Positions 135 to 18,273 of a DNA stretch of 18,273 bases are shown one piece after another. The DNA lies in assembly GCA_905178155.1 (NCBI GenBank), contig CAJINV010000001.1, positions 2,199,889-2,218,161 of the forward strand, written 5' to 3'. The first letter of the stretch is position 1, and every line of letters starts with the position of its first letter. The notes beneath the pieces are model-generated. The model was given only the letters and a program-made list of their open reading frames with translations. It did no database searches and had not been told where the DNA came from. The stretch is from Amoebophrya sp. A120. Taxonomy: Eukaryota; Protista; Dinoflagellata. A program made the translations under genes and the position numbers.

Positions 135-310
135 GCGCGCGCACGCATTTGGTTACCAGATCAGTATTTATCAACTCGAAGTTGTATTGGCTCATTCAAA
201 CGACAAAAACACAATGACGATGTTCAGATGAACGAGTGCATCGATCCTGCACCATCTGCATCTGCTCGTGCTCCAGGGCACAGAAATCAAGCAAAGCTAT
301 GTTATCTATA

Positions 311-3300
311 CTCGTGGTAGTCGGTGGGTAGCCCGACCCAGGTGCGGACTTTGGTGTCGGGAATGATGAACTTGAGCGGGTCGTGCTCGGGCGGCATATG
401 GCTCTCAAACGTTACACTCTCAACTGTTACATGAATTTGTCATGCAAAAGCACCATCATCATCCACACGATCAAGCTGCTTCGCATGACAAATTTGCGAA
501 GGGCCAGTAAACAACGCCTAAATCTGTTCGGAATTTGTAATGCTACAGGTGCAGCCTCCCCCCTTCCACTTTTCCCATTCTTGCATCACAAATCCATGTA
601 ACAGTTGAGAATGTAACGTTTGAGAACCCCATACGGCAGCAAACACTCGTCTGGCATCTCGAATTGGACCTGCTCAGCGCCTATGAATTGCAAACATGTC
701 TACTGGGTCTGGAAGAATACAAACTTGTAATGCGTATTTCAGAACACAGAAAAATCTCTCATGCATACGTAGCAAAAGCTGCCCACTTTCTGTCACCAAA
801 GTGGGGAATTTGTCATGCAGATTCGGCATTGTGGAAGCTTCTCGAAACCTGTGATGCTAGAGCTTCCATACCAGACCTTCCGTGTCATGCAAAAACAGCA
901 TGACTCTTGCAGACCCAGACATATTTGCAATGCATAGCGCCGTCGTCCACCAAACCGCGCGGCCCCCGCACGTACTGCTCTTCGAAGCAGGCGTAACGCT
1001 GCTCGTACCGCCCTTGTGTCGGTCGCATGTGGTAGCCAGGGAGCGGAAGCTCTAAAGGCTCGTACATGAAAACCTTGTTGCGAAAATGAATGCGAATGCG
1101 ATGTTGCGAAAAATGCTGTTGAACAGCATCAAATAAACGCAGCTGCTTCACTCTTATTCATGGCGCACCGGCTTTCAAGATGTGGACAATATGATCAACA
1201 GCACGCGCCTGGAATCTTCATCTATCCTCCGAACTAAGCCCCTAATAAATACCTTGCAGTCTTCTCTTTCTATCAGCGGGAGCGGTTTGAATTGCAAAAA
1301 GTTTGCGCGGTCGGTGTTCAGCAACGGCTCGAAATCAAATTGTTTGTCTTCCTCGTCGGCACCCAGTGCGGACTCCGAGGTCGGCAGAATCGTTGGCAAA
1401 AGCAGCCGTGGCTGGTTCAAGACTATCCTGGGTAGCGGCGCCTTGCCCGCACGGTCAACTTCGAGTTGCGGTTCGAGGATGTCTTCGGCGTCCTCGTCGT
1501 CGTCTGAATTGGAGTTCAATTTCTGTTGCACTTGCAAATGCAAAAACCATGCCTGAACCTGCATTTCATCAACCTCCACCGAATGTACTAGAGGTCTTTT
1601 TGTTTTCTCACGAAGTAGAGCCCCAGTGTAAAAGAAGCAAAAACGCGAAGATGATGCTGTCGTGATGAAACTTCAGTCTACCTTTCTTGTCCTTCTGCTT
1701 ATCCTTCGGCGCGGAGGAGACCGCCGCCGCCTTATTTTCTGCTTCCACCCAGGCCTTACAGCTGGCGCGGTCTGTGACCTCGTTTTCCGCCAACGCTGCT
1801 TTCAGCTTCTCCAACCTTCGCCACGCGCGGAGTTGCATCAACAGCTTTGTCCCGGCGCGCACGAAGCGGTCGATGATTTGCAACCGCATCGCGAAGGAGT
1901 CGTTCGCGTACACATCCCAGCAGGGGGGAACCGCGCTCCGCCAGTCCAGCGGGAGGGGCACGCGGGTGTCGTTACTGGTTTCTTCCGAGTAGCGGTGGAC
2001 GTCCGCGGTCAGCGTTTTCGTGAGCAAGTGGGTCTGTATGACAGTGCACAACCCCCCCTCCCCCAACTTTGTCATGCAAAACACCCAATCCACCCTTTCA
2101 AAGGGTGGATTGGGTGTTTTGCCTCTTGGCACTGTTTGCGTGACAAGTTCTGCTTCTGGCAGCCCAAAGAGCACTGCAAATGGAAATACAATCCAGTGCA
2201 AATTTGTCATGCAAAACCGGCACTCTTGCTGATGCTTGTGTTGCCGTTCATGCTATACAAATGAGGGCAAGGCGGAGCTGTGCACTCTCATAGTCTGCAA
2301 AGCCGCGCGCTTGTCGCGGACCGCCTGCTTCTCCTGATATGCATTGCAAATGTGTCTGGGTCTCAAAGGATGCAACTTGTCATGCTAAGTCTGGATAGTG
2401 CAAAAATTTGTGTTGCATGATTACCAAAAGGTGTCCACTTCTGAACAAGTTTAGCGGCAGTTTGTCATGCAGGATAGACATGATAGAGACTTCGCAGAAC
2501 CTGTCGTGCTAGGTCCTGCATTGCAGACCTCATGGGGCATGGAAAATATGCATGACAAGTTTGCATTCTTCCACACCCAGACATTTGCATTTAATACCTG
2601 GTTGGTCATTACCACCTCGCCGAGGCAGACTTGCGTGCCCTTCAAGTCCTTGGCTTTGTCGTACCTGTAGTACAGGGGGAAACCGATGTTATGATGATGT
2701 TTGGTGAATCTCATTTTTGTTTTTCCGCACTCTTTCCTTGCGCTTGCCCACCGCCACCACATTCACAACGATATAGGGCATATAATTTCTGAGGTATTGC
2801 GACTTTTGATCCTGTTCCTGCTCCTGCTGGCAACACACCACACCTTTGTAAAGAAGTACTCTTGCAAGTCTCGGTATTTCATGTCGAAGCGGAGTTCCCG
2901 CGCTTGCCTGTCTTGTGCAGTTTCCTCCGTTTCGTCCTTCTCTTCCGTCGCCTCCCCGGCGGCTGCTTTGCGCTCGATATCCTATGTAAAAACGTCCCCA
3001 CCGGAGAGTTAGTTTCTCATGCGCAACCCCATTAATACGAGGAGCATTTTCTAATGCTGTCTTGGACTTTGTTATGCTCGAAACAGGAAGAGACGCTAGA
3101 TTTGTGATGTGGTTTCACTAGCCAAAAACAGCTACACTACTGACCCAAACTCGTCATGCGCAACAGCCAAAACTTCTCGATCTGTGTTCGCAAAATTGAT
3201 TCCCATCTTGCCTGTCGCGGGGGGACCACGAATTTCATCAGGATACTCGGTTTCGTTCAGTTGCTCGCGTTGCTCCCGAATGAACTCCGCTAGATCGGCG

Positions 3301-4853
3301 AGCGGCATTTTGCCCGCAGTCTGGTTCATGACGAAATTTATGTGGTGCTGCCCATACACTTCCTCGAGCGGAACCTGGTGAGATTTTTTTGCATTTTTGT
3401 TCTTTTTTCTGTTTGCATGTACGTGATTTTTACGCAAAGAAGTGTCCGTCAAGATGCCGGTGAAAACCAGCCGTAAGTCCTGCAAAGTAAAAACGGTAAA
3501 ACGAGCAAGCATTTTATCAATACCTACCTTGATGTCGTCGACCGTTTTGTATTTTTGTGGAACGGGCTTCACGAAGGGTTTGTCCACGAAGGGGTCGTTT
3601 TTTCTGTCGAGCAGAATTTTCACCCGGTCTTCCAAGTCCGATTTTGCGCGTTCTCGCTGCACTTTTCGGTACTCCCTCTCCCCGACGGTGACCACCTCTG
3701 CCTTGGACAAGTCCGACAAGCAGTTCCCCAAAATGTTCACGATACTCGGCTGGGAGTCAAACTGCGCGATTTCGACGGAAATTTTCATCGTGCTGGTGCG
3801 GTGGTGCGTGGGCATGTACGTGATTGCGACGTTGGTGGTGGACTCGGGGAGGATAATGCCCCGCAGCGGAGAAATCTCAAACGCTTCGTCCTTTTCCAAA
3901 ATCTTGATCTCGAACTCAAACTCCACTGGTATCCGGCACGAAAGGGGGAGGAGCTGTTGTTTTCAGTTTTGATTATTATTTCTTCCCGTGTCGACGGGAC
4001 CTGTGAGACCTTGTAACCCTCTCTAGCGGGGGCCGTACGAAACGAGAAGATGAAGTTTACTTTTTTGTTAGGCGAACCGAAACAACGAAATCTAGCGTCA
4101 CCTTCGTTTTCGACGTGGCCAATCCTAGTGTGCCGAAGTCTATGTAGCTCGGCAAGGGCGTGTCGTTGGCTGAGGGGTAGCCGTGTATTGGCACTAGAAG
4201 ATTCTCATCCTGCTTCCCCGTGAAAACTTGCAGATTGTCGTGGTAATATCGCCACTCGCTGGGCGTGAAAAAAACCTCCACTTCCTCTGCCATTCCGGGA
4301 GCCAGCAGGCCGCGCTTCTCGAAACTGCAGTAGAGTTTGCAAATTGCTACGAGGTAAAGTAGTTTTTCATTCGTGAGCTTCACCAGGCTCGGCGTTGGCG
4401 TTGCATTCATGCGAGCATGAGTAACTGGTGCACATGCACAAGGAAAAAAAAACGAAAACTACGTTGTAGGTAATCCACTTACTTTATCCGAAAGGCTTTT
4501 TCAGCCGACGGCGGCAACACCATGACTCGCAGGGCCTTTCCGGAGATGTTTCGTATTGTAAAAACCTGCTTGTGTTCCTTGTGTATCTGAAATCCACCAA
4601 AATGCAGTATGCCCGGCTTCACCGCTACCTTCACATTTTGTCGCAGCTTTTCAAACGGGTACTTCTTCAGCAGTAGATTCTGCGCATTCTCGTCGTCCGT
4701 TCGCCGGGCTCCAAGTTCCGCGGGCACGAACAGCGTCGGTTCCTCGGGTACCACCGGGGGGAGGTTCGTCGCATGTTCGGCCGCGCTCGGGGGTTGCTGT
4801 TGCCCGCTTCGCATCTGCGAAGACGAGCTAGAGGAGGGAGTTTGTTCTGGCAT
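311..4853 (-). CDS. CFAP221: Cilia- and flagella-associated protein 221 (PCDP1) homologue, multi-exon, >768 aa, 3' end unresolved. Hand-built exons: 4853-4483, 4324-4102, 3953-3528, 3374-3244, 2979-2860, 2664-2595, 2339-2291, 2038-1682, ~1530-1253, 1073-935, 683-632, 398-~311
   Basis: Spliced N-terminal region reads KPGILHFGGFQIHKEHKQ...RVMVLPP...GLLAPG...FTPSEWRYYHD...LLVPIHGYP...PSYIDFG...PLSCRIPVEFEF...FEISPLRGII...EIAQFDSQP, matching my recollection of the CFAP221 ASH-like region (PGIIHFGGY, FSPDEWRYYYD, LLVPIHAYP, PLQCSCPVDFEF). GT-AG introns at 4325-4482, 3954-4101, 3375-3527, 2665-2859, ~1531-1681 (acceptor uncertain) and 1074-1252, plus five TIR elements, join the exons in frame. The start may lie further upstream (open frame and a CAG near 4913). 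Confidence 0.88.
399..631. mobile_element. TIR introner/MITE, family B (233 nt)
   Basis: ~50-bp imperfect TIR TATGG..TCTCAAACGTTACA(C/T)TCTCAACTGTTACATG(A/G)ATTTGT(C/G)ATGCAA, with TA on both sides. Removal gives CCG TAT ATG (LLPY-MPPEHDPLKF). Confidence 0.9.
684..934. mobile_element. TIR introner/MITE, family A (251 nt), orientation 1
   Basis: Ends TATGAATTGCAAACATGTC..CTGGGTCTGGAAG and CTTGCAGACCCAGACATATTTGCAATGCATA. Removal gives GCT ATA GGC (DDGA-IGAEQV). Confidence 0.9.
2039..2290. mobile_element. TIR introner/MITE, family C (252 nt)
   Basis: Ends TATGACAGTGCACAAC and GCTGTGCACTCTCATA; homologous to 13846-14076. Removal gives ACT ATA CAG (ALQT-IQTHLL). Confidence 0.88.
2340..2594. mobile_element. 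TIR introner/MITE, family A (255 nt), orientation 1
   Basis: Ends TATGCATTGCAAATGTGTCTGGGTCT and CTTCCACACCCAGACATTTGCATTTAATA; interior similar to 10060-10322. Removal gives GTA TAT CAG (TNQV-YQEKQ). Confidence 0.9.
2980..3243. mobile_element. TIR introner/MITE, family D (264 nt)
   Basis: Left end TATCCTATGTAAAAACGTCCCCAC is identical over 24 bp to 13464-13487; degenerate right end GGGGGACCACGAATTTCATCAGGATA. Removal gives GAG TAT ATC (NETEY-IERK). Confidence 0.85.
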
Positions 4854-7800
4854 GGTCTTCGGAAGTGCTGATGGTGAAGATGGAGGGAGTGCCGGCGCAA
4901 GGGCACGAACCTTCTGTAGATTCCAAGGCTAGTAGCCTGTCTGAGCCCGGAAGTCGCGATGTTGGCGTTACTTCAATGTGGAAATCGCCAGGTGGTCACC
5001 CTTTGAGCACCGCCAGTATTTCTTGTCCTCGATTTCGAAAAACGGATTTTGTCGGACAGCCATGCAGTACTCGGGTTCGGGAGAAACATCTTCCCTATCT
5101 ACCCGTTGCAATCCCTCCAGTCAATTGACCGCAAAGGAGCGCCTGCCCTGCTTCGGTGTTTCCACATTGCGACACAGAACCAAGGACAGACGGATGACCG
5201 GACGGGGAGATGCGTTGCTTGTCCTCTATCGTGCGGTCTGCGGAATCGGCATCTTCAGGCGGCGCAATCAAGGTCGCGACTGTGCAGCTCTGAGCCTCGT
5301 CTCTCTTGTCCAGCCGACTGTAGTGCCTGCTCGTGCTCCTGATGAATGATTTGCAAAAATTCCCGCACTGATTCTGAAAGAAGAACGATCTCCGATTCTC
5401 AAGGGCTGCGGCCCACGTGCAGCCTTACATTGGAAAAAAACTAACTTCCGAGTGCTCGCAACAACAGACCACGGCACTCACGACAACTCAGATGAAGCTA
5501 GTCGCTCCCGGCTTCCCGGCTGGACAGACTGACACAACCGTCAACAGGCTCGGGCCACCCAGGACACTCAAGCGAAGTAGCGCTCAGACCCAGGGGCCGC
5601 TCGTTTCTTTATCACAGCTGCAGCCTGTACCCACACTACCCTCTACCTGTGCTGCGTGCTTGCGAACAGACAGGGAGATATAAACGGCGCAAGCGGTCGC
5701 CATTATCGCAACCCAGGAGGAGGCGTACAGGACGCCCCATTTTCGGAGGGCGGCCCAATTAATCCAAACGCAAAGAACAACAAAATAATGAAAGGGCCCG
5801 AAGCTGGCATCGTGGCGCCGCCCCTAATGCGAATTGCCGTCGGCCTAAGTAGTCAAAACCGCGGCTGCGGCGCGCTGGGAGTTGAACGAAGTGCGCGGCC
5901 CCGGCTGGTGCGGCGCTGGCATCCAAACAAGAAACAAAGACGCCCCTGAAGGAAACACAACTCCCTCACGCACCCTCCTTGCCTTCTACCGGCCGGCGGC
6001 ATAGCAGGGGGGGGCGGCGAGAGGGCGCGGCGGCGCCGCCGTCCGAACAATACCGAGGGGCCGCCGGCCTGCGGGCGAAGAATGAAAGCTGCCTGGCGGG
6101 CGCGGCCTCGGCATAATGGGCGCCAGACAAATCGCGCAGCCACAAAACCGCGCGGCGGCCCGCCCCTTTCGTTTCTGTAGCACCTCCCTGGGCCGGCGCT
6201 TTCGGAGCTTGGCTGGGCCGCGTTCGGGGCCCGGCGCCGTTCTCGGCCCCGGCCCGCGCCAGGCGCGGCGGGGCACCTTAAAGCGCGAAAAAACAAGAAG
6301 CGGGCGCCATGCCTGTGCTTCTTGATGCCCGCGCCTAGGGCTTCCATCTATGTACCTACGGGCGCAGGCCGGTCAGGATGAAGACGAAGCGCGTGCGAAA
6401 ATCAACCGCCGGCGCTAACTATCGCTTGCGGGCGGTGGGGCGCCCCAAATAGTTGCAGCAGCCGGTCTTGCCGCTGGTTCGTACGTTCCGGACCTTTGCC
6501 GGCTTTGGTCTCTTGCCGTTCCCACCTCCCCGGTTGTCTTGCAAGTCTGGCCCGATAACTCCCGCAGCCCGCCCCTCGCAATCAAACGCTGGCAACCCCC
6601 CCGCCCCCTCCTCGGTCGGTGGAGGGCCCACCGGCTTTGGGGTCCAGAAACTTCGGGGGCCCGAGCGATCAGCTCGGCGCAAGATGAAGAAGCGCAAAAT
6701 AAACACTCAGCGCGAAAGCCCCGGCGCCTCTGGAAAATTGCGGAGCGGCAACACTACTCGCGCGGAGCGATCTATCAACGGGCCGGGCCATGTAGTTGCA
6801 ACTTGTCGAGGGGCAGGGGCAATAGCCCAGGTCCCCGACGGGTGCCACACGTCCACGGAACTGCTGCGGCCGCGGCCTTGGTGACGGCGCTTGCGCTAAT
6901 AGCCGCACTTCAACCAGCACAACCGGCCGCCACTTTCTTCCAAGGCCGGGCCGGCAGCGTAGCCACTTGCGCCGGACTCTGCGCGCCGGCCCCCCGTCGC
7001 GAAAGGAAGCCCCGCATGCTTGCAGCCACGCCAGCTAGCGGCGGGCGAAGGAAGGCCGGGCCCGGCGCAGCTAAATTGCAGGCCGCCGCTTGGGCACGAG
7101 GAAAGCTCCAAAGCGCCGCCGTCACGCCCCGAGAGCGAGTTTGCAAAAACCCACAAGCCTCAGGCGGCCAATATTGCGCAGCGCCAAAGCCGCGCCCCGG
7201 CCCCCCAAATACCACCTGCCATTGTTTCATTCTTGGGCATGCCGCGGCCGACCGATTGCACCGGGGCCACGCCGCAGGAGGGACATACCCCCGCCCTCTC
7301 CCTTCTATCCTCGCGCCGCCCGGCCGGCCTGCTGGCCCTGCAGAATTTCTCCAAGGTGTTGCGAGGTTGTCAACCACGGCCGTGGTAAGGCGCGCCTGGT
7401 ATTCCATGCATGTCCCGGAACGCTTCGCCAAGGGCGTCGGCTGCGGTGCTGAGTTTGGTGCCCTTACGGAAACGCCGCGACACAGCGCACGCCTGCGCCG
7501 GCAGGGCGGCGCGTTCTTACTTTTAGCCTTAGCGGCCTCGCTGGGCCGGCGGGCCTCTACTTAAAAGGGCGCGCGACGCCCCGCGCCCGTCTTGGCCTCA
7601 AAGCCGAAGATAGCTTGGGCTACAAGTAAGCAAAAAACTGCAAAAAAAATCCAGCGCGCGGCCGGAAATTCAGAAGCGCGCAGCCAGTTAGGTTCCGGCT
7701 GCTGCAGCTGGTTGCATAGCCCCTGCAAGCTCGCCCTCATTAGGGAGGCTAAAAGTGGCGCCAAGGTATCGATGTCACTTTCTCAAATCATCTGAAACAG

Positions 7801-8537
7801 GAGGCCTAGGCTAGTGGTCTCAGGTGGAAAAAATCATTGTGCTGAGGCACAATCAGATCGAAGGAGTTAACTTGTCAAATGTGAATGCCACGCTGCTTAT
7901 TGCTTGTTGCTGGACCACGTGAACAAACATCAAGCGTAAAAGCGCACATGCCATTTCTGGTTCATCCGCTTCTCCTCATATGGCTCCTCATCATCATTAT
8001 CTATTAATTTCATCTATACATCAAATCGACAGCAGTTCATTATTCAGCGGCTTGTCTTGTCTTGTCGAATAGTCCTCAGATGAAGGGAGCAAAAAGGATC
8101 CCTCGTCGCTTTTCATCACCTTCAAGGGTGGCTCGACCTCCATCAGGGGGAGTCTATTCGCCTTCGCGTTCCCGATCGCCGCAGGGTGAACGTGACATGG
8201 CCTTCTAGCTAGGTTTGGCTCCGACGTAGCCGATCAGGCAATTACAGAGACACAGGCGAGAGTGGGCGTGACATGGAGAAGATAAAACTCACGCTCTTCA
8301 TCTTCAACTTCACTGGGCCCTTCGCCCTTTGACCGTCTTCTGCATCGCCTTCCAGTCGACTCGTGACCCGCTGCTTCCTTCTCATCCATTCCACCGATTG
8401 CGTTCATTGCACTGCTTTGCAGCAAGGTCAGTCAGCTGTTTGTCACGCACGACTGGGGCACATCGCTCCTCTGCGTCGCCCAGGCATCCTGCGTTCTTTC
8501 ACAGCAGCTCGTTCATCTACTCCGCGCTGTTCTTTTA

Positions 8538-9371
8538 TCAAGCCTGCGTGGTCGAGGTCGTCGTCGTCTTGCTCAACCTGGCTTCCAATTCCGCCTGCAC
8601 CATGGTCATGTTCATTTCGAAGGTCTGGATCAACCGCCGCAGTTCCTGCGTGGACTTGTTCCGAAAATCCGTCGCTTCGGTATCCCCCTCCAAATCGTGC
8701 AGCTCCGTCTCCAGCGCCTGCCGTTCCTTCAGCAGAGTCGCCACCTCCTCGTTCAACTCGTCAAAACGGGTTTGCAACTCCTTTTCCTCCTTCACCGCGT
8801 CGGCGTCGTCGGACCGCGTCCGCAGCGTCTCCTCGCACTTGAACAGGCTCTCGATCGCGTTGCTCAAGTACCCCTGAAAATCGTCCTCCCAGGTGCGGTT
8901 CGTAGAAGATGCGGCGGGCTGGAGAGAGGAAGGGGAACGCGGCAGATCGCCTGCATTGCGATTTCGGTAATATACATGGTGCATTTCCTTTTTCAACATC
9001 CGCATCAGGAGGCGGGAACAGGAAGAACAAGAACTCTTGCAGACATATTAATTTGCGCACATAAACGACAAGTAAAAACCGCGAAGATTGTAGCTCGCTA
9101 ATGTTCTACATGAACTTTGTGAATCGCGAGTACCTATTATCGGACTTCGCACAGTGAGCCGGTTTATGAGCGCTTGGTCATGGGGCTCGAAAAATTCGTC
9201 ATTGAGGTTCTGTGGCGGTGGTGCCGGCCCAGCCGGTTTCGTAGAAGTACTGCCTGAAGACGCGGACGCTGGTGGTGCGGTCTTTTTCGCGGCGGGAGCT
9301 GCGGCCGCGGCACTCGGAGCTTTACCCAAAACACCACTGCGCCACGCGGCTTCATCAGCTGAGTCCGTCAT
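8538..9371 (-). CDS. Hypothetical coiled-coil protein, ~184 aa, two exons (9371-9153, 8873-8538)
   Basis: ORFs 9048-9419 and 8538-9005 join in frame via a GT...TTTTCAG intron at 8874-9152 (DQALINRLT|GYLSNAIESLF). The N-terminus is A/P/S-rich and the C-terminus is E/L/K-rich and heptad-like. No family recognised. Confidence 0.7.
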
Positions 9372-9937
9372 CTTTGTTGTGACAATATTTTTATCACGTT
9401 CTGTCTCGTCAGAAAGCAAAAAGCAAAGCTTTTCATTTAAGTCTTGATGTGCTTCTTCTCTTCAAGATCCATACGCACAATAATCTCGACGCCCTCACGA
9501 CGACCGTCGTCGTCGCTTCAGTTAGTTGTAAATCCTAATCCTCACACACAGACATATTAACTACCTTGATGTTCCGCTGCAACAGGAGCGGGTGAGACTA
9601 CACGGTTACACAAAAAGACTTTGTGCAGAACAACGGGAACAACGTCCACTCAACCGACTTACGAGAACCACCGCGAACGCGCTTCATACGCCGTTGAGGC
9701 TTATGACCAACAATAAAGTGTCGACGCGTATTCACCCCGCGCGGGTTAAAATTCTCATGTGAAATGGTGCATGGCCCTTTGTTCTTTCTCACAACTGCGG
9801 TTTCTGTAACACTGCTAAGGGAACATCAATCAATGCTGTGGTCGTAGTCGTTCGTAAATGATTTTACTTTTTCTTATTATTGCGCTAGTAGACACAAACA
9901 GAAACAACTTCAAGACGTTTAAGTTTATTCTGTCTCG

Positions 9938-10884
9938 TCAAGAATCGATGGATTTCTTCCAGAAGTTTGGGTTTTGCGTTAATTTTCTTCGAAAGGAGTC
10001 GAACCACTGCTCCAGTGCCCCGATCGGGACGAGTTTCTCTTGCACCAACGCCTGCCCTATCAAATGCGAAAATGTCTGGGTCTGGAAGAATGCAACTTGT
10101 CATGCTAAATCTGAAGCATGCAAAAATCGGTGTTGCATGATTACCAAAAGTCGTCCAGTTTTGACCACGTCGGGAGGGAGTTTCTCATGCAGGATAGGCA
10201 TGAGAGAGATCGCACAGAATCTGTCATGCTAGGTCCTGCATTCCAGACCTCATGCCATGGGTCATGGAAAAGCTGCATGACAAGTCTGACAATCTTCCAG
10301 ACCCAGACATTTTTGCAATCCATATGCCCCCGCGTTCGCCACTGCTCCTCGGTGAGGATCCACCCGCTCATGTGGTCATAGCAGTTCTGCGCGAGCGCCT
10401 TCACGAATGTGAGGTAGTCCGTCTGCTGCTGCTGCACCTGCTGCTCTTTGGGCACGATTTTCTGCTGTATTGCGGACAGCGGCTCGACGAGCACCCCTAT
10501 CCTCGTAAACTGCGGCTCGGGTGTGACCGCGACGATCGCCGTTTCTGTAGGAGCTGCCGACAACATGGCTGGCTGTGCGGGCGGCGAGTTCGACGCACTG
10601 CTCTTCGTACTGGCGGACGAGGAAACGCGGAAGATCGCGGAGGGTTTGTCATTGGCCAAATGCCCGAGGAACTTGAAGCCGTTGTCGGACAACATGAGGT
10701 AGACAGACGCGCCATGGTTCTCCGGCAACGCTTGCGCGCCGGTGAGAAAGAGAACCAAATGCTGCAGCTGGGAGTGCGGCACTGGAAGCTGGAACATAAT
10801 CTCGTTGTCGCTCATTATCTGCCCGTTCACTTGCACCGGCTGACCGGGGAGAATTAACCCGATCACGTTGCTCGTTGCGGCCAT
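9938..10884 (-). CDS. HIKESHI: Hikeshi/OPI10-family (DUF775) Hsp70 nuclear import carrier homologue, 227 aa, exons 10884-10323 and 10059-9938
   Basis: Motifs GLILPGQP, HLVLFLTG..LP...GASVY, FKFLGHLANDKPSAIFRV and IGVLVEPL. After removing the TIR element the family C-terminus LVPIGALEQWFDSFRRKLTQNPNFWK appears in frame, ending in TGA at 9938-9940. Confidence 0.88.
10060..10322. mobile_element. TIR introner/MITE, family A (263 nt), orientation 1, in the Hikeshi gene
   Basis: Ends TATCAAATGCGAAAATGTCTGGGTCTGGAAG and CTTCCAGACCCAGACATTTTTGCAATCCATA. Removal gives CAT ATA GGG and restores the conserved C-terminus. Confidence 0.93.
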
Positions 10885-11838
10885 GATTGATGGATCTTGT
10901 TCGGATTCAAAAGTACTAGAGTCGGATGAAATAATGATTGAAATAGCGACAGAAGTAGAGGATGAGGCCTATCAGTTTCAACGTGTGCTGTCGCTCTCCT
11001 CATCCGTAATGAGCAATACGGATATTTACTGCTTCCAATAGACTCGTCAGCAGGGGACTAGGACTCTGGACTCTCGATCTCGTCGTTTTAACTACCAATA
11101 TCAGGAAACAATGACTTCTAATTCATCTGTTTGATAGTGCAAACTCTAACTCTTTCTTAAATTTCTAGAAGATGTTGAGATGACCCTGCAACTAGAAGCA
11201 AATTATGAAACAGAGATACTAGTATGCATTGCCCAGCGGTTTGCCTTCGCCGATGCATTTGCAGTTTTGTTTGTCGTCGATTCTTTCATTGTGTGATTCT
11301 GGAGTAAGATGCCGTTGTGAAAATCATCCTCCAATGAATTTTGATCTACCAATGTGTATGCATGCAAAAATTTTGTACAGGATGTGTGGTTCCGCTTCGT
11401 TGAGACGACTATATCAAATTCCAAAAAAGTTACTACATGTATGATGAAACAAAAACGATTTTTGTGCGCTACTCAAGCGGTAATCTGCTTGATGCGCTCC
11501 GTTCATACTGCTAGGAAATTTTGAAAGATTAAGATTTACGATTGGAAAAACTATGGTGAAAACAGATCTGACTAGAAGAAGTCATCCTGTTTCTGAGCTA
11601 GAATTTCTGCTATTGTTCCGAAGACTAAAAGATAACTGCTCATCAAAGATAAAGATTGTAAATGTAAACTCCGAATAAAACAGGTTAACGGAAAACTACC
11701 GATTCTTCTGGTGGTTGTAGTTCGAGTTCCACTGTAATTGTACAGAATAGTAATGATTTGACCTGGAGATGAATTATTCTTGCAGATGAAGTGTACTGTT
11801 GCTGACACTTCTACCCAGCAAAAAATCTCATCATCCCG

Positions 11839-14800
11839 TCAGTCTTCGTACGGCATCAGAACGGTGTAGGAAATCCGCTTCTTCTTCGGCACTGTCGACT
11901 GTTTCCGGATAACCTTCTGCGGTCCGCGGCGGAAGCCGTAATCCGACAGGTTCATCAATTCGTCCGCGGCGTTCTGCGCCTGCATCTCCTCCTTCAGATC
12001 CCGCACCTCGTAAATGAGCCGGCGACTGCTCAACCGTCCCAGAGCCGACTGCTTCCGCCGCTGCTCGTTCATCTGCGACAAAGACTTCCCCGCGGCAATG
12101 CCCTCCGGCGGCCCCGCGCCGGACTTTTTTGGCATCTCCGTCAGCGTGCGCGCGCCGGGCACGAGGAACGACTTGGGTTGGTGCTGGAACATATCAAATG
12201 TAAAAATGTCTGGGTCTGGAAAGTTCCGGGATTTGTGATGCATATTTTGTATGAGCCATAATGCATGTGATGCATGATATAGCATCACAGATTTTTAGAG
12301 GGCTTCCTGATCCCTATTCCGCATGAGAAATGCCCTCTCCGCGTACCACAAACTGGACTCCTGTTGTTGGTCACGCAATACAGATTTTTTTGGAATCCAA
12401 AGACAGCATGACAAGTTGCAATCTTCCAGACCCAGACATTTTTGCAATTCATAGAACAGCGCGGGGCCGCACAAGTAGCTCGGTCGCGACTTCTTCCCGC
12501 TGTTGTTCTCTTGTTCTTCTTCGTCCTCCGGGGAAGAAGAACTCAGCATCCGACTGTTCTGCTTACTTCGGACCTGTTGCGAAGTTGTGGTCTTTTTTCT
12601 CACGACAGCACTGCCGGTAGAAGAGGTGGAAGTTGTTTTGTGCACCACGCGGGACGCAGGCGACGAGGCTTTATTGCGGTCTTTCTGTTTCTGCCCCCTA
12701 CTACTGGTACTACCTGTTGCAACCGGCGCCGTGGCCGGTCGCCGGTCGTATTCGAACTCGTCGAAAAAGTCATCTTTTTCATTCTCCTCCAGCTGCAAAT
12801 CCTCCGTTTCTTGCAGTAAAGTCCTCGCTTTCAACTCGTCGGGGCGCAGCGTGGTCACCATAGAGGAAGAGGGAGATTTATTTTCGTTTATTCCGCCATG
12901 TCGGTGGTCTTCTCCTGGTCTTGTTGAGACAAGAGATGAGACTTTGTTCATGGCCTTCGCGGACTCTTGTGACGCGGTTTTTAACACCCTTTCCGCTCGA
13001 TGCTGTTCCTGCATCATCTCTTCCTGTTCATGGTCTAGCACAACCGTTTCCCCTTCTTTGTAGTGCGCACCGAGACCAAACGCGAACGTCATCCCTTTCT
13101 TCAGCGTCTTGTCTTGAATATTTTTCGCTGGTGATACTGACCTACTATTCGGAGAACCCGCTCCTGCTGCCCCTGTCAGATCATCGTTCGGCCCGAGGCC
13201 CTGGAACATGCGCTGAAAAGCGATTTTCTGCTCGGCTTCGCTGCGTCGCAGTGGCGGTTCCTCGGGCACGACGAAGACCTTCTTCTTGTGTCCATTCGGC
13301 AACTCCTGGTCGGCTTCTCGCAAATTGAACAGCGCCATCGCGTTGGCCCACGCTTCTTTTTCCGCCTGCTTCGGGACCACCCGCTCCGCGTAGCACCGTT
13401 GGAGGAAGGTGACCCCCTCGAAGTCCCGCGGGCCCATCTCGATAGCCGCGCGGCCAAAGGCTTTATCCTATGTAAAAACGTCCCCACTCCCTCGTTGTCA
13501 TGCAGGTTTGCATCCACAGAAACGTCTGTAATGCACATCCGCATGACGAGAGAAATTTGTAGTCGCGTTCTGGGATTTGTAATGCTGCAAAAAGGATAAC
13601 AAGCAGGCGTCTTTGTGATGCGGCTCTCCTTGCTAAGCAGCCCGATACTACAGATGCAAACTTGTCATGCGGGACAGCCAAAACTTGTGGGTCTGTGTAG
13701 CAAATTCCCCAACTTGACGATGGGGTGGGGACGTTTTCCCTTAGGATAGGCTTTCACCAAAAACCACCGCTTTTTGCTAAGCCGGGACTTCGTGATGGCG
13801 TGCCGGTCGAACATGGACCGCTGCGCCTTCTCCTGCTCCTTCTTATGAAAGCGCACAACTGCTCCCCCTCCCCCTCACTTGTCTGGCATGAACGGCAATA
13901 CACGCATCGGCTGCAAGAATGCAGGTTTTGCACGACAAGAAATTCATCCAGGATCATTCTTGTTGTAGTGCTGGTTGCAGTTCCAGAAGTTGTTATGCAA
14001 AAAGTGCCATAGGGGCAAAGGGTGGATTTGGAGTTTTGCATTACAAATGAGGAGAAGGGGGAGTTGTGCACTCTCATACTTCTGCGCGAGCATCCACAGG
14101 TTATTGTTCACCAGGATCCTCCGCACCGCCTCCTTATCGTCCGCGTCGCCGCACAGCACGAATTTCGCGTTTTCCGCCTGTTCTAGGTTCCGCAAATCAT
14201 GCTCTTCCTGTTTCGATATGCATTGGAAACATGTCTGGCTCTGGGTCTGGAAGTAGTTTCTGAGACTTGTCATGTTGGAAGGCTAAGGGCAGGGCGTCCC
14301 ATTCGTTTATAAACTTAAAACGGTAGCCACCTACCCAGCAAACTCTGAGTGGAATAAGCACGGGCAAAGCGATCTCTACCGAGAGACAGTTACAAGAGCT
14401 CCTGGGACGGCTGCGGGATGAGCTTCTGAGACTTGTCATGCACGTTTTGCATGAGCCATGATGTCTGTGACGCATGCCCTAGCATCACAGATTTTTTGAG
14501 GCATTCACTCTTGATGCCTATTCCGCATGACAAATTCCCTCTCCGCGTCGCAAAAATTGCATTCCCTTTGCTGCTCATGCAATACAGATTTTTTAAGAAT
14601 CCAAATGCAGCATCACAAGCTCCGCTGTCCCAGAGGACCAAGGCATATCTGCAGTTGATATTCGACAGGTGCGCGATGTGGTCGGTGTCCTCCAACTCTG
14701 CGGAGCCCAACTTCTCCGTCTGCTCATTCTTACTGCTCGCCGAACCCGCGGAATCCCGGCTGAATCTGCGGCCGGCCGCTGCACTGGAGGATCTCTTGGA

Positions 14801-16534
14801 CACGACTCTCCTGTTACCCGCTCCTGGGGCAGAAGACGGTCTTCTACCACCGCTTTGGCTTTTCGGACTGAGCGACGACCCATGGTCCGCTCCCGCGAGA
14901 GATTCCACCGCGAACACCGGACCGGTTATGCTTTTCGCCAATGCGTATCAAGTGCAAAAGTGTCTGGGTCTGGAAGAATGCAGACTTGTCATGCATATTT
15001 TCTATGATGATTGATGCCTCTAATGCATGATCTAGCGACACAGATTTTTAGAGCGCTTCCTAAACCTAATGCCTATTCCGCATGAGAAATGCCCTCTCCA
15101 CGTAACACAAACTGGAGTCCTGTTGCTGGTCATGCAATACAGATTTTTTTGGAATTTAAAGACAGCATTACAAGTTGCAGTCTTCCAGATCCAGACATTT
15201 TTGCAATCCATAATGCGCCGACGTCTTTGAAGCGCTCCTGCTGTTCCTCGCGGAAATACTCCAGTGCCTCGTTTGCGTCACGGATAAAATCGCCCGGCGC
15301 GGGCGTGTCTACGTCGAAAAATTCCGCCACGCGGGAGTAGGGGTCCACGTCCGGATCCTCTTTCAGACCTAACGTTTCCAGCAGCTTCTCGTTCGTGGCA
15401 AACTGGCAGTCGCGAAACTTCGCCCGTATCTTTTCGCGTTTCGCCGGGTCCTGCATAAGCGAATTCCTTCTCGCCCACCAAGGGCTCGGGATACCCTGCT
15501 CCTTGAAAAAATCCAGGATGGCCTCCGGGGACTGGTCGGGGACGAAAGCGGAAGAACTGAAACTAGAACGGGAACGGGAGAATTGCAGCCCTTTCTCTAT
15601 CTGATAATTTCAACAAGTTGGAAGTTAGTATATTCACTAGATTCTGCTTGCAGAAGCAGATCGTCGATGTAGATGGCCTACAGCAACGGAAGCAGTTGTA
15701 CCAAAACAAGAGACATCGATCATCTGACTAAGTATGAGAATCAGAATTTAGTAAAACTCACCCCAACTTTTGTCGTCCTCTCCGGCATCAAACTTTTGAA
15801 CGGCCTCGGGTTTTCCCCGAGTACGCTGTCCGTCCGCTGGAAGTGCAGTTTTGGATTGCTCGCCGTGTCCACGATGCCCAGCTTGGCCGCCGCAATTGGG
15901 TCGCTGTGTCCGGCCGCTATGCCGTCCATCACGTCTTTAAGCGAGACGCGCTCGCCGCCCGTCCCATTGCGGCTCGGCGCGTTGGAGGATTCTGTTGGTT
16001 TTGGATTTGGAATGCGATATGATCGTCTATTTTCATGTCAATGTCATGTTGATATTGTAGATTGTAGCCTTCTTCTTGCGAAATGCTTTTAACCGCAAGA
16101 AGAAGAACCCAGACTGCAAGCATGATGAATTTTACCTGCATCCTCGAAATCGTCCAAATAGTCTTCGGGGTCATCTTCCTCATCCTCCGACTGGTAGTTG
16201 CCCTCGTGGTATCAGATGCAAAAGTGTCTGGGTCTGGAAGAATTCGAGATTTGTGACGCAGTTTTGCCTGACCCGGATTGTCTGGCATGCAAGCCAGCAC
16301 AGCAGCACAGATTTCGAGCAGGTCTCCCAAGGCCTAAGACGCATGACAAATCCCCTGCTTCGGTAACAAGAAACGGGCACGGGGCCTTTTGCTGGCCATG
16401 CATGACAGAATTTCTCATGATGTAGAATTCGCATCACAAATTGGAATCCTTCCCGACCCAGACATTTTTGCATTTGATACGTGACGCATCGGAGGACCGG
16501 CGTCCACGCCCAATTCGTCCTCTGCGTAGGCCAT
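11839..16534 (-). CDS. Hypothetical protein, ~883 aa, 9 exons: 16534-16478, 16211-16136, 15991-15762, 15600-15211, 14947-14659, 14218-14077, 13845-13747, 13465-12452, 12193-11839
   Basis: Exons sum to 2652 nt and give one stop-free frame from MAYAEDELGV to VLMPYED* after removing two GT-AG introns (15992-16135, 15601-15761) and six TIR elements. Contains charged and S/T-rich low-complexity tracts; no domain recognised. Confidence 0.78.
12194..12451. mobile_element. TIR introner/MITE, family A (258 nt), orientation 2
   Basis: Ends TATCAAATGTAAAAATGTCTGGGTCTGGAA and CTTCCAGACCCAGACATTTTTGCAATTCATA. Removal gives TTC TAT ATG (PALFY-MFQHQP). Confidence 0.92.
13466..13746. mobile_element. TIR introner/MITE, family D (281 nt)
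   Basis: Ends TATCCTATGTAAAAACGTCCCCAC and GTGGGGACGTTTTCCCTTAGGATA. Removal gives GCC TAT AAA (LVKAY-KAFGRAAIEM). Confidence 0.9.
13846..14076. mobile_element. TIR introner/MITE, family C (231 nt)
   Basis: Ends TATGAAAGCGCACAACT and AGTTGTGCACTCTCATA; shares AAAGGGTGGATT with 2039-2290. Removal gives AAG TAT AAG (LAQKY-KKEQEK). Confidence 0.9.
14219..14658. mobile_element. TIR introner/MITE, family A, orientation 2, enlarged to 440 nt by a nested insertion
   Basis: Left end TATGCATTGGAAACATGTCTGG(CTCTGG)GTCTGGAAG; degenerate right end GCATATCTGCAGTTGATA; interior matches the 12194 and 14948 copies. Removal gives AAT ATA TCG (HLSN-ISKQEE). Confidence 0.87.
14258..14440. repeat. 17-bp perfect direct repeat TTCTGAGACTTGTCATG (14258-14274, 14424-14440) flanking a 149-nt insert
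   Basis: Read directly; the insert is absent from sister family A copies. Confidence 0.9.
14948..15210. mobile_element. TIR introner/MITE, family A (263 nt), orientation 2
   Basis: Ends TATCAAGTGCAAAAGTGTCTGGGTCTGGAAG and CTTCCAGATCCAGACATTTTTGCAATCCATA. Removal gives TTA TAC GCA (DVGAL-YALAKS). Confidence 0.92.
16212..16477. mobile_element. TIR introner/MITE, family A (266 nt), orientation 2
   Basis: Ends TATCAGATGCAAAAGTGTCTGGGTCTGGAAG and CTTCCCGACCCAGACATTTTTGCATTTGATA. Removal gives GTA TAC CAC (MRHV-YHEGNY). Confidence 0.92.
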
Positions 16535-16908
16535 ACTTCGTTCTGAGACTATTTCTCGCTCGTCTTTAGAATTCGCACAGCACGTGGGGGTGGGGAAAAA
16601 AAGTCCCGTGCTGCAAAAAGAAAAGATGTGTGATTTCAATTTTGGTCAACAACGTTTTGCTTCCGAAATAGCTTAGCGTACGACAACGAGGCATCAAAAG
16701 GCAGTTGTCATGAACTAACACTGTACGCGTTTGTGAAAAAGACTGGCAAGCAGGCGCTACGAATCGAAAAAAAGACGAGTGCGACGACCCCCAGCCCCCC
16801 ACGCATGGCAACAAAAAAAACGAAAAAAACCGGCAGCGCGTGCCACAATAAGTTGTTTTCCTTTTCGCAGCGATACATCCAACCGCAAATCAAGAGCAGA
16901 TGCCCCCC

Positions 16909-17901
16909 AACCCATGGACGAGATCTGATACGACCACATTGATTATTATTATTTAGATTCGCTTTAAAAAAGCGCGCTAGCCAACCGGCAAAGCCGATTA
17001 TGGCAGCGAGTGTCCAGGTCTCACGTGCGTTCACCTTCAGCGGGTCCTCTGTGTAACTTCTTCACCGGGTTCTCTCAAAGTAGTACTAAAAAACTATGGG
17101 TAAACTCTTAGTAAAGTTTTCTAAAACTCCTCGTACGCTGCAAGAAAAAATTTTTCCCCTTTTTGATCTGTGATTATCGCTCTGTGCAATCTAAAAACTT
17201 TTTTTCTCCAGGATCCTGAGCTATGGCCGACCTTGATTTGCAAGATCCTAATTGAAAAGTGCTTGACTAAAAAAGCGACAATACTGCAGTTTGGACGCTT
17301 TGGTAGTGTGAAAACGCCTATTTCCACTACTTATCCTGTAACCATGACCTAACAACTAAATAGAGAGAGAAAAAAACTAAAAAAGGGCAAGCTTGAATTT
17401 AGTTTGACCTTTCGTCTAGACACAGAGTTAGCCTGATACTTGTGCATGAAGGAGACAACAGCTGCTAGTCCAACTAGTTGATCTAAACTCTGACCGCCGC
17501 CTCATCCGGAGCCCCCGGTTTCTCTTCCGTCTCCGGTTGTTCGAGCTTACTTGTGGTCCGGTGATATTCCACGCGTTCTCCAGTTGACTTCGCCTTGACT
17601 AAGTTTCTGCGCCGCGGTTAAACGGGCGAGCCAAACGACCACCGCGCACGTGAGCCTGTTGCGCAAGCTCGTCTATCCTTATAAGCTGACCGATGAAGAC
17701 TAGCCTCGGGGCCTCCGGCACAAAGTATAGGAAATGAAAAAAATCCGCTCCCTTGGGGAACCATAAGCGAAACACTATCTATTTTCTTCTATGCACGATG
17801 TTATTCTTTTCTTGTAGCCGAAAAGTCTTAAACCCATGGACGAGATATGATACGACCACATTGACCGACAACGGTCTTATGATACGAGATATGATACGAC
17901 C
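16909..17901. repeat. 34-bp direct repeat (16909-16942 and 17831-17864, one mismatch) plus an 18-bp third partial copy (17884-17901)
   Basis: AACCCATGGACGAGAT(C/A)TGATACGACCACATTGA occurs twice; ACGAGATATGATACGACC occurs again at 17884. Confidence 0.88.
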
Positions 17902-18089
17902 TTATCCCGCGGGTCATCTGCTGTAGAATCCCGACGGCTTGCTGCTGCAGCTCCTGTGCGCCGGTGGCGTGGAGAACATCGTCCGGCACGACGTAGGAGA
18001 TGTTAACTGCGCCAGCCCGCGATGTGGAAATACTTATGGACCGGAGGAAGTCCGCTACTTTCTGGTCTTTTGCTGTCCCACTCCTCGTA
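17483..18089 (-). CDS. 3' portion of an unknown gene entering from beyond the window; candidate exons 18089-17901 and 17606-17483
   Basis: Only one minus frame is open below the TIR element at 18090 (YTRSGTAKDQKVADFLRSISI...QQMTRGI). A GT-AG intron at 17607-17900 would join it in frame to NLVKAKSTGERVEY...AAVRV*. The last exon is tentative. Confidence 0.5.
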
Positions 18090-18270
18090 TCCAGCGCAAA
18101 AGGAATCGCACTCGTTCAATTTGTAATGCTCTTACTTAGTCTCGCATGACAGATCTGCTTTCCTGCATGACAGATTTGATTTCGTTTTTCCTGTCTGCAT
18201 GACAAGTTTCATTTTTCCTGTTGCAAAATTTGTGAAGCGACTCCTGCTAGTGCGATTCTTTTGCGATGCA
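18090..18270. mobile_element. TIR introner/MITE, family E (181 nt)
   Basis: Left TATCCAGCGCAAAAGGAATCGCACT versus reverse complement of the right end TATGCATCGCAAAAAGAATCGCACT; three internal GCATGACA copies. Frame not testable because only 3 nt of flank remain in the window. Confidence 0.85.
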
Positions 18271-18273
18271 TAA

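Follow-up and report, generated by a model that had tools for sequence, protein, structure and literature searches.

How do short inverted-repeat elements leave the coding exons they interrupt when their borders offer almost no ordinary splice sites? The question is raised by a stretch of 18,273 nt (hereafter the window) that, judged by its sequence, is from Amoebophrya A120, the strain in which this class of introner was described. Thirteen elements in it start with TAT and end with ATA. In RNA-like contigs the elements are missing together with one copy of a 5-bp target-site duplication (TSD); the spliced product is therefore the pre-insertion sequence of the gene, without a scar. The class itself is known and already published for A120, including 5-bp repeats and TAT ends, in the available parts of Farhat 2021 (PMC7789003); an initial annotation, made from the letters of the window alone, had rightly pointed to the inverted-repeat introners described in Amoebophrya.

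Elements and target-site duplications

Elements were collected by an unbiased inverted-repeat scan and inspection, and are named here by their first position. All 13 carry imperfect terminal inverted repeats (TIRs) of 25–45 nt, which form five families by pairwise alignment and TIR sequence: A (682, 2338, 10058, 12192, 14217, 14946, 16210), B (2037, 13844), C (2978, 13464), D (397) and E (18088). Sizes are 185–444 nt, too short for a transposase open reading frame. Twelve elements interrupt coding exons of three minus-strand genes: five in gene 1, one in a Hikeshi gene and six in a third gene. Intron phases are distributed 4, 5 and 3, so that all three occur. Retention of any single element gives a premature stop (12/12). 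The initial annotation had placed 13 elements of five families in four genes; elements and families stand, with 12 elements in three genes; the 13th element is cut by the window end, and the fourth gene is putative.

All 12 complete elements are flanked by a 5-bp TSD, perfect in nine cases and matching at 4/5 positions in three; random pairs are perfect in 0.12% and match at ≥4/5 in 1.8%. The TA earlier taken for the target duplication is part of the element end, and the duplicated target, which had been missed, is a variable 5-mer. An origin as transposons with a 5-bp duplication is virtually certain.

Junctions in RNA-like contigs

The comparison covered six of 11 available sequencing runs. 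X1 and X2 are contig runs of one sample from one study, taken as RNA by guess and by behaviour; they consist of contigs, not reads. Their contigs that skip elements also skip seven canonical GT-AG introns. X5 is a contig run with neither kind nor life stage on record that behaves as DNA, with a 1056-nt contig spanning two canonical introns at depth 81.8. Two raw-read RNA runs, X9 and X10, gave 11 and 3 reads matching the window, mostly partial, and speak neither way. The display of a contig joint leaves the letters between its two sides unread; the gap was closed by arithmetic on record coordinates, which accounted for 999 exon bases of gene 1 (999 letters) and for the 69 that precede element 16210 (69 letters). 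Proteins used for comparison were P0004 (gene 1), P0001 (Hikeshi) and P0006 (partial, third gene), all named A120 by their sources, and orthologs from A25.

The elements and the junctions found are as follows.

397..633, minus strand: introner, family D, 237 nt; TSD CGGCA/CGGCA; skip 242 nt; joint 391 to 634 in X1 and X2; aligned with P0004 and P0005.
682..936, minus strand: introner, family A, 255 nt; TSD GCGCC/GCGCC; skip 260 nt; joint 675 to 936; one GC-AG register possible; aligned with P0004 and P0005.
2037..2292, minus strand: introner, family B, 256 nt; TSD GTCTG/GTCTG; skip 261 nt; joint 2031 to 2293; covered by the 999 = 999 arithmetic.
2338..2596, minus strand: introner, family A, 259 nt; TSD CCTGA/CCTGG; skip 264 nt; joint 2332 to 2597; GT-AG register available; upstream TSD copy kept.
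2978..3245, minus strand: introner, family C, 268 nt; TSD CTCGA/CTCGG; skip 273 nt; joint 2972 to 3246; upstream TSD copy kept.
10058..10324, minus strand: introner, family A, 267 nt, in the Hikeshi C-terminal domain; TSD TGCCC/TGCCC; skip 272 nt; X2 loose ends at 10057 and 10325 (15 and 10 nt); aligned with P0001–P0003.
12192..12453, minus strand: introner, family A, 262 nt; TSD GAACA/GAACA; skip 267 nt; joint 12186 to 12454 in X1 and X2.
13464..13748, minus strand: introner, family C, 285 nt; TSD GGCTT/GGCTT; skip 290 nt; joint 13457 to 13748 in X1 (depth 18.6) and X5 (43.6; nearby total 86.7).
13844..14078, minus strand: introner, family B, 235 nt; TSD CTTCT/CTTCT; no contig junction displayed; scarless junction compatible with the annotated protein P0006; bin 13922–14089 at depth 1.0 in X1.
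14217..14660, minus strand: introner, family A, 444 nt; TSD TTCGA/TTCGA; skip 449 nt; joint 14211 to 14661 in X1 (17.3) and X5 (46.6; nearby total 91.1).
14946..15212, minus strand: introner, family A, 267 nt; TSD ATGCG/ATGCG; skip 272 nt; joint 14939 to 15212; X1 record 2 contiguous (375/376); right end at full depth in X5 (record 17).
16210..16479, minus strand: introner, family A, 270 nt; TSD CGTGG/CGTGA; skip 275 nt by arithmetic on X1 record 2; both ends at full depth in X5 (records 17 and 18: 81.8 and 82.5).
18088..18272, strand not given: TIR element, family E, 185 nt, at the window end.

At the nine displayed joints (242, 260, 261, 264, 273, 267, 272, 290 and 449 nt) the contigs skip the length of the element plus 5. 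The same rule holds at 16210 by record arithmetic and in Hikeshi by the two loose ends, which brings the total to 11 of 12. A single contig lacks all five elements of gene 1. The scarless model is gap-free at five junctions of P0006 and at six junctions covered by A25 orthologs. At the three sites with unequal duplicates the RNA keeps the first base of the upstream copy, so that the 3' cut must lie at least 1 nt past ATA.

Tc1/mariner transposons target TA. A TA duplication of this type, with removal of every element leaving TATA, had been the model of the initial annotation, and it does keep the frame at 12/12 sites in three phases (4, 5 and 3). So does the scarless model: the two differ by 9 nt, and the earlier frame test could not separate them. 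The contigs do. TATA removal predicts skips of element length minus 4, whereas the measured skips are 9 nt longer at 11/12 sites; it also adds three residues at each of the 11 junctions compared with proteins, six of them covered by A25, and leaves the 5-bp repeats without explanation. The model is practically untenable. Other junctions in RNA had been named beforehand as the outcome that would overturn it, and other, scarless junctions are what the RNA-like contigs contain. The junction predicted for Hikeshi is likewise replaced by a scarless one, given by the two short X2 ends. The statement that no border register reads GT-AG, GC-AG or AT-AC holds at the real junction for 10 of 12 elements among six registers each, but not for 2338, with a GT-AG register, or 682, with a GC-AG one.

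Removal from RNA, and empty alleles

The joined form also occurs in DNA-like X5, at 13464 and 14217, in one contig each; the depths are 43.6 and 46.6, and neighbouring variant letters have half the total depths of 86.7 and 91.1. These joined forms are read as empty-site alleles of a second haplotype in which the single 5-bp target is visible; the two insertions are polymorphic. At 16210 (both ends) and 14946 (right end), X5 enters the element at full depth without a branch, and no joined form of either was found among the 15 of 75 X5 joints listed. X1 skips both elements. Filled in DNA and skipped in X1, these two sites argue for removal at the RNA level there.

In ciliates, internal eliminated sequences are excised from DNA at pointer repeats with the loss of one direct repeat. 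Comparable excision in the transcribing life stage would account for the joined form at two X5 sites, and the loss of one repeat fits pointer logic. It is highly improbable: the two empty sites stand at half depth beside half-depth single-nucleotide polymorphisms (SNPs), as alleles would, and 16210 and 14946 show the unbranched filled form just described.

A further explanation would derive all RNA junctions from an element-free haplotype or strain, the filled alleles being dead. Two haplotypes are indeed seen in X5, X1 and X2, and two sites are polymorphic. Against this, the pieces of the gene 1 contig show 0 letters that differ from the window; X5, which shares variant letters with X2 at 13354–13363, has 16210 filled at full depth; and an X1 contig across 14217 is free of five SNPs of the empty X5 allele, although phasing over 35 nt is weak. 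The explanation is scarcely credible.

Reverse-transcriptase template switching at direct repeats around a strong hairpin, with the elements staying in the RNA, would also yield loss of the element and one repeat. Direct repeats plus structure are a known recipe for such artefacts in the available parts of PMC4176328, and the RNA evidence here is presumably all based on cDNA. Retention would truncate 12/12 frames, but conservation with A25 extends over the junctions in Hikeshi and in gene 1. All five gene 1 elements are missing from one contig, the repeats are only 5 nt long with three imperfect, and the interior bin 16274–16441 has depth 0 in X1 and X2, although rare forms are lost from contigs. 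Template switching is very unlikely as the source of the junctions. Removal at the RNA level is very probable.

Half-depth variant letters lie in X5 at 13297–13457 and 14211–14795, some shared with X2; further differing stretches are 10606–10659, 11348–11597 and 13152–13243. Differences of P0001 and P0006 from the window fall where the RNA-like contigs also differ, which suggests a second haplotype; gene 1 shows none. Possible sources of two haplotypes are diploidy, a culture of two genotypes or local duplication. The published literature yielded no account of A120 with two haplotypes or polymorphic insertions; the main text of Farhat (PMC7789003) has 0 mentions of heterozyg, ploid or polymorph, and subscription papers and figures outside the available material may cover the point.

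Further copies and the absence of a flanking signal

A 19-base TIR motif was scanned against a public assembly, giving at least 146 loci with 177 motif matches. These were reduced to 106 copies; 28 matches had no upstream TAT, and others failed the TIR score, came with under 12 nt of flanking sequence or marked the other end of a copy already counted. Removal of four copies with a TSD match below 4/5 and five with a low coding score left 97. TAT and ATA were required by the search, and their invariance in the loci is no test. Outside the elements, the window had no match to the loci, and likeness among the best copies is 72–92%; judged from this, the loci may belong to another strain.

Among the 106 copies, 94 have a perfect 5-bp TSD, eight match at 4/5 and none has a TSD of 6–9 bp. 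Other lengths were rejected: counts for 2–4 and 6–9 bp are 11, 2, 1, 0, 0, 0 and 0. The flanks of the loci yielded 44 other TAT...ATA candidates, 32 with a perfect 5-bp TSD and six with a match at 4/5. By eye, the flanks of loci L002–L141 contain at least six further TAT...ATA TIR types of 130–330 nt, most with a perfect 5-bp TSD; a few flank copies (L008, L017, L056, L058, L089) are without a 5-bp duplication. Single TSD mismatches fall at the two outer positions in 12/17 cases, a mild excess (p 0.011, post hoc). Summed X5 contig depth over the elements reaches 1.7e5, as compared with about 82 for single copy.

The strand of the 97 copies was taken from a codon model, correct in 59/65 leave-gene-out windows. 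Relative to the inferred transcription, 46 copies lie one way, 50 the other and one is ambiguous; in the window, family A is skipped in both orientations. A canonical-like register (GT-AG, GC-AG or AT-AC) is present in 12/97 copies against 11.8 expected, with GT-AG in 5/97, and phase correction leaves none of the TSD positions biased in these copies (smallest p 0.039 of 20 cells). With orientation even, canonical ends at chance and the TSD unbiased, the element flanks therefore carry no detectable splice signal.

Two apparent patterns were discarded. Enrichment of G at TSD position 1 (42/97), considered as a clue to the register, has p 0.054 after codon-phase correction. A phase bias of 47:28:22 (p 0.005) occurs only in the forward-scored half (14:10:29 vs 14:12:18), is absent in the window (4:5:3) and was treated as a scoring artefact.

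Proposed mechanism

The probable interpretation, held at somewhat better than even confidence, is that TAT...ATA fold-back, miniature inverted-repeat transposable element (MITE)-like introners with a 5-bp TSD are removed without a scar, likely by splicing machinery that would read the predicted terminal stem and not GT/AG. Guidance of removal by the element ends, and not by flanking dinucleotides, is likely in its own right. The earlier picture of MITE-derived introns removed by machinery that reads paired termini is kept in part: the MITE origin stands and the elements are absent from the spliced contigs, and a signal in the paired ends, with random orientation and no dinucleotide bias, appears the most plausible.

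Insertions lie in either orientation and have duplicated a near-random 5-mer, and the second haplotype still has two empty sites. A transposase encoded elsewhere presumably mobilises all families. In pre-mRNA, pairing of the TIRs is predicted to form a long stem with UAU:AUA as its closing pairs, which would bring the two duplicate copies together. Predicted folding gives long terminal stems with z of −2.3 to −11.2 in 12/13 elements (30 shuffles each) and a probability of the second terminal pair of ≥0.91 in 12/13. Each cut would keep a set distance from the stem, the two distances adding up to 5 nt, and joining would restore the pre-insertion sequence, as the contigs show.

The best guess for the offsets is a cut 1 nt before TAT and another 4 nt after ATA, which would put the invariant U of the element at intron position +2. 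This 1+4 register is held tentatively, at less than an even chance. It is favoured, on weak grounds, by the U at +2, by agreement with the GT-AG register of 2338, by Table S4 of Farhat (PMC7789003, seen in part), in which 9/9 top A120 non-canonical end pairs have T second (NT-xx), and by an X2 contig that exits 4 nt from the 13th element at AG.

Catalysis by a modified U2/U5/U6 spliceosome is about an even call. It is favoured by the presence in A120 of U2, U4, U5, U6 and most spliceosomal proteins, with no U1 found (Farhat 2021, PMC7789003, in the parts available), and by the Fritillaria precedent (PMC11282704, likewise in part).

With the same origin and product, the elements could instead be removed independently of the spliceosome, by a structure-specific endonuclease and ligase (tRNA/IRE1-like) or euglenid-type machinery cutting at the stem base and releasing a linear or circular intron. 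Removal blind to terminal dinucleotides and orientation, together with long terminal stems, fits such a route, as do the paired core with fixed spacers to the cuts in Euglena (PMC12501133) and the release of circles (PMC11282704), both known from parts of these papers. The enzyme itself would be hypothetical, a nearly full spliceosome is present (PMC7789003) and MITE introns of Fritillaria are reported as spliceosomal (PMC11282704), again according to the parts available; 2338 offers GT-AG and 682 GC-AG, though within chance. This route is rather unlikely, though a genuine possibility.

Several points weigh against the preferred interpretation, removal by splicing machinery that reads the terminal stem. 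No lariat, circle or intermediate was seen, and a lariat test of these introns was not found in the published literature, though subscription papers and figures outside the available material may include one. X1 and X2, the source of the junctions, are RNA by guess and behaviour, from one sample and as contigs only; at 13464 and 14217 the RNA junction could derive from the empty allele. There is no AG/GT selection in any register, at odds with spliceosomal 3' recognition and in favour of a euglenid-like or endonuclease-ligase route. Both ends would be buried in the terminal stem. Shuffled sequences fold as well as element 2978 (z −0.5), which is nevertheless skipped, and in element 397 a bulge displaces the terminal pairs. 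The T at the second position in Table S4 (PMC7789003, seen in part) may reflect the choice of an aligner among equivalent registers. A rule that mismatches lie only next to ATA, true of 3/3 cases in the window, was rejected on the loci (1/8 there, with 4/8 at position 5). No transposase was found in the window.

A bolder version is doubtful: a ruler blind to splice sites, in which one machinery would bind the UAU:AUA stem of any A120 MITE family and make its cuts 1 nt ahead of the stem and 4 nt past it. Together the offsets would equal the 5-bp stagger of the transposase. Elements could then land anywhere in an exon, in either orientation and at no cost to the protein, and would still be spreading, with filled and empty alleles in one culture.

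Further features of the elements

The sole visible base to the right of the 13th element (18088) does not match a 5-bp duplication. One X2 contig departs from the window at a minus-strand AG (18083), which lies 4 nt from the end of the element, and then enters an A-run; A is likewise the one base visible beyond the element (window 18083–18273). Possibly this is a copy without duplication and with an unambiguous cut, or an element that ends a longer canonical intron. As proof of the 1+4 register it was set aside and serves as a weak hint only; the contig does not run into a duplicate, and the window ends there.

The 444-nt element 14217 contains about 166 nt of unrelated sequence between two 17-nt direct repeats (14258 and 14424; window 14258–14440); it is exactly skipped, and the site is polymorphic.

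A subterminal 9-mer, defined from the repeats themselves, occurs in 29 copies in 12/13 elements and in 0 copies in 14,783 outside bases. It lies mostly 33–52 nt from the element ends, is common to otherwise unlike TIR families and is a candidate transposase binding site. Near the 3' end it contains a branch-point-like UGAC, but is predicted to be paired in the stem. Rfam gave 0 matches at the gathering score, and a motif scan of viral_contigs gave 0 matches.

Host genes and neighbourhood

The three host genes are as follows.

310..4853, minus strand: host gene 1, with Ig-like domains of CFAP65/HYDIN type, first 744 of 985 aa; five introners and six canonical GT-AG introns in the span; PF24507, E 5.8e-12.
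9938..10884, minus strand: Hikeshi-like protein, 224 aa; PF05603, E 3.5e-27, and PF21057, E 4.8e-10; aligned with P0001–P0003.
11839..16534, minus strand: host gene of unknown function, 865 aa; six introners and two canonical introns.

The spliced model of gene 1 is identical to A120 P0004 at 744/744 residues; its A25 ortholog is P0005. Identity of the Hikeshi model with A120 P0001 is 221/225 columns; for the third gene and P0006, a partial protein from A120, it is 625/642 aligned columns.

A 216-codon coiled-coil gene at 8538–9371 (minus strand) has one canonical intron, no introner and only a weak Pfam match below the cut-off. A GC-rich spacer (5400–7800, up to 68% GC) has many inverted repeats, long open frames and little cover by X1/X2 contigs. 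Pfam gave 0 families for five further open frames, three of them in this spacer. Upstream of the third gene, where the sequence is non-coding, a short block is seen by eye three times (16893–16942, 17835–17860 and 17883–17900). Gene 1 continues beyond the window start through an intron that contains, at 79–141, a GC-rich hairpin; 34 nt of this hairpin are skipped in an X2 contig.

Significance

The window adds no new kind of element. It gives a sharper form to the problem of removal without GT-AG, which concerns more than 60% of A120 introns. The rule of element plus 5 nt, free of orientation and without flank selection, points to a sole signal, the terminal stem. One DNA sample with both filled and empty alleles of one gene offers a built-in control for the cost and accuracy of splicing, and copies with unequal duplicates could fix the cut register from existing RNA-seq. 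The corrected rule and the empty alleles together make the splicing question easier to test.

Comparison with known systems

The elements belong with the published introners of A120: they lie in A120 genes, start an inverted repeat with TAT (13/13), have a direct repeat at the border (12/12), form repeated families and are removed mostly at non-canonical sites. As MITEs they are short, with TIRs, a fixed 5-bp TSD and no transposase, and single-copy empty sites are seen at two X5 sites. They differ from Tc1/mariner elements in that TA lies inside the element end and the TSD is a variable 5-mer, from Ginger elements with TGTNR termini in ending with TAT, from U2-type introns in offering GT/GC-AG ends at only 2/12 window sites (canonical-like ends in the loci being at chance), and from euglenid introns with a CDG/CHG core in ending TAT/ATA. 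The following comparisons draw on the available parts of the papers cited.

Farhat 2021 (PMC7789003) described 29,850 repeated introns in A120, with TAT-starting inverted repeats and 3–5-nt direct repeats (5 bp in the legend of Fig. S19), and gave their borders as unknown. Shared with the published A120 introners (PMC7789003, PMC12130899) are inverted repeats running from TAT to an A stretch, lengths of about 240–270 nt, direct repeats at the borders, non-canonical ends, absence from A25 ortholog proteins and a mechanism left open. Farhat (PMC7789003) placed the 3–5-nt repeats at variable positions, and automated TSD calls by Gozashti 2025 (PMC12130899) were 2–5 or NA in the 21 of 58 A120 rows examined; here every family has the same TSD length of 5 bp. 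The examined parts of PMC7789003 and PMC12130899 do not mention random orientation, a lack of dinucleotide selection or alleles with empty sites.

Ginger/Tdd integrase-like transposons (PMC2836005) also have TIRs, and TDD-4 and TDD-5 make 5-bp TSDs; homology to LTR integrases is reported for A120 TIR introners (Gozashti, PMC12130899). Ginger elements have TGTNR ends and mostly 4-bp TSDs with a target preference (PMC2836005), whereas the ends here are TAT, and the likeness is a lead only.

Introners of Micromonas and Aureococcus (PMC11282704, PMC7789003) are likewise short TIR DNA transposons, and their splicing removes one TSD length. They use canonical sites, one carried and one from the TSD, whereas only 5/97 copies here have a GT-AG register. 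MITE-derived introns of Fritillaria borealis (PMC11282704, PMC7789003) are TIR and TSD elements that made introns in bulk, with reported excision by an adapted spliceosome. Their preferred ends are AG-AC and AG-AT, with a target preference for TAC (PMC11282704); A120 elements show neither.

Non-conventional introns of euglenids (PMC12501133; PMC11282704) resemble the elements in having non-GT-AG ends joined by terminal pairing, TSD-like repeats and a probable MITE origin, and are cut at set distances from a paired core (PMC12501133). That core is CDG/CHG, with spacers of 3 nt and 5–6 nt and a purine after the 3' cut, and the introns are released as circles (PMC12501133; PMC11282704); in contrast, the elements of the window have a TAT/ATA core and no base preference in the flanks.

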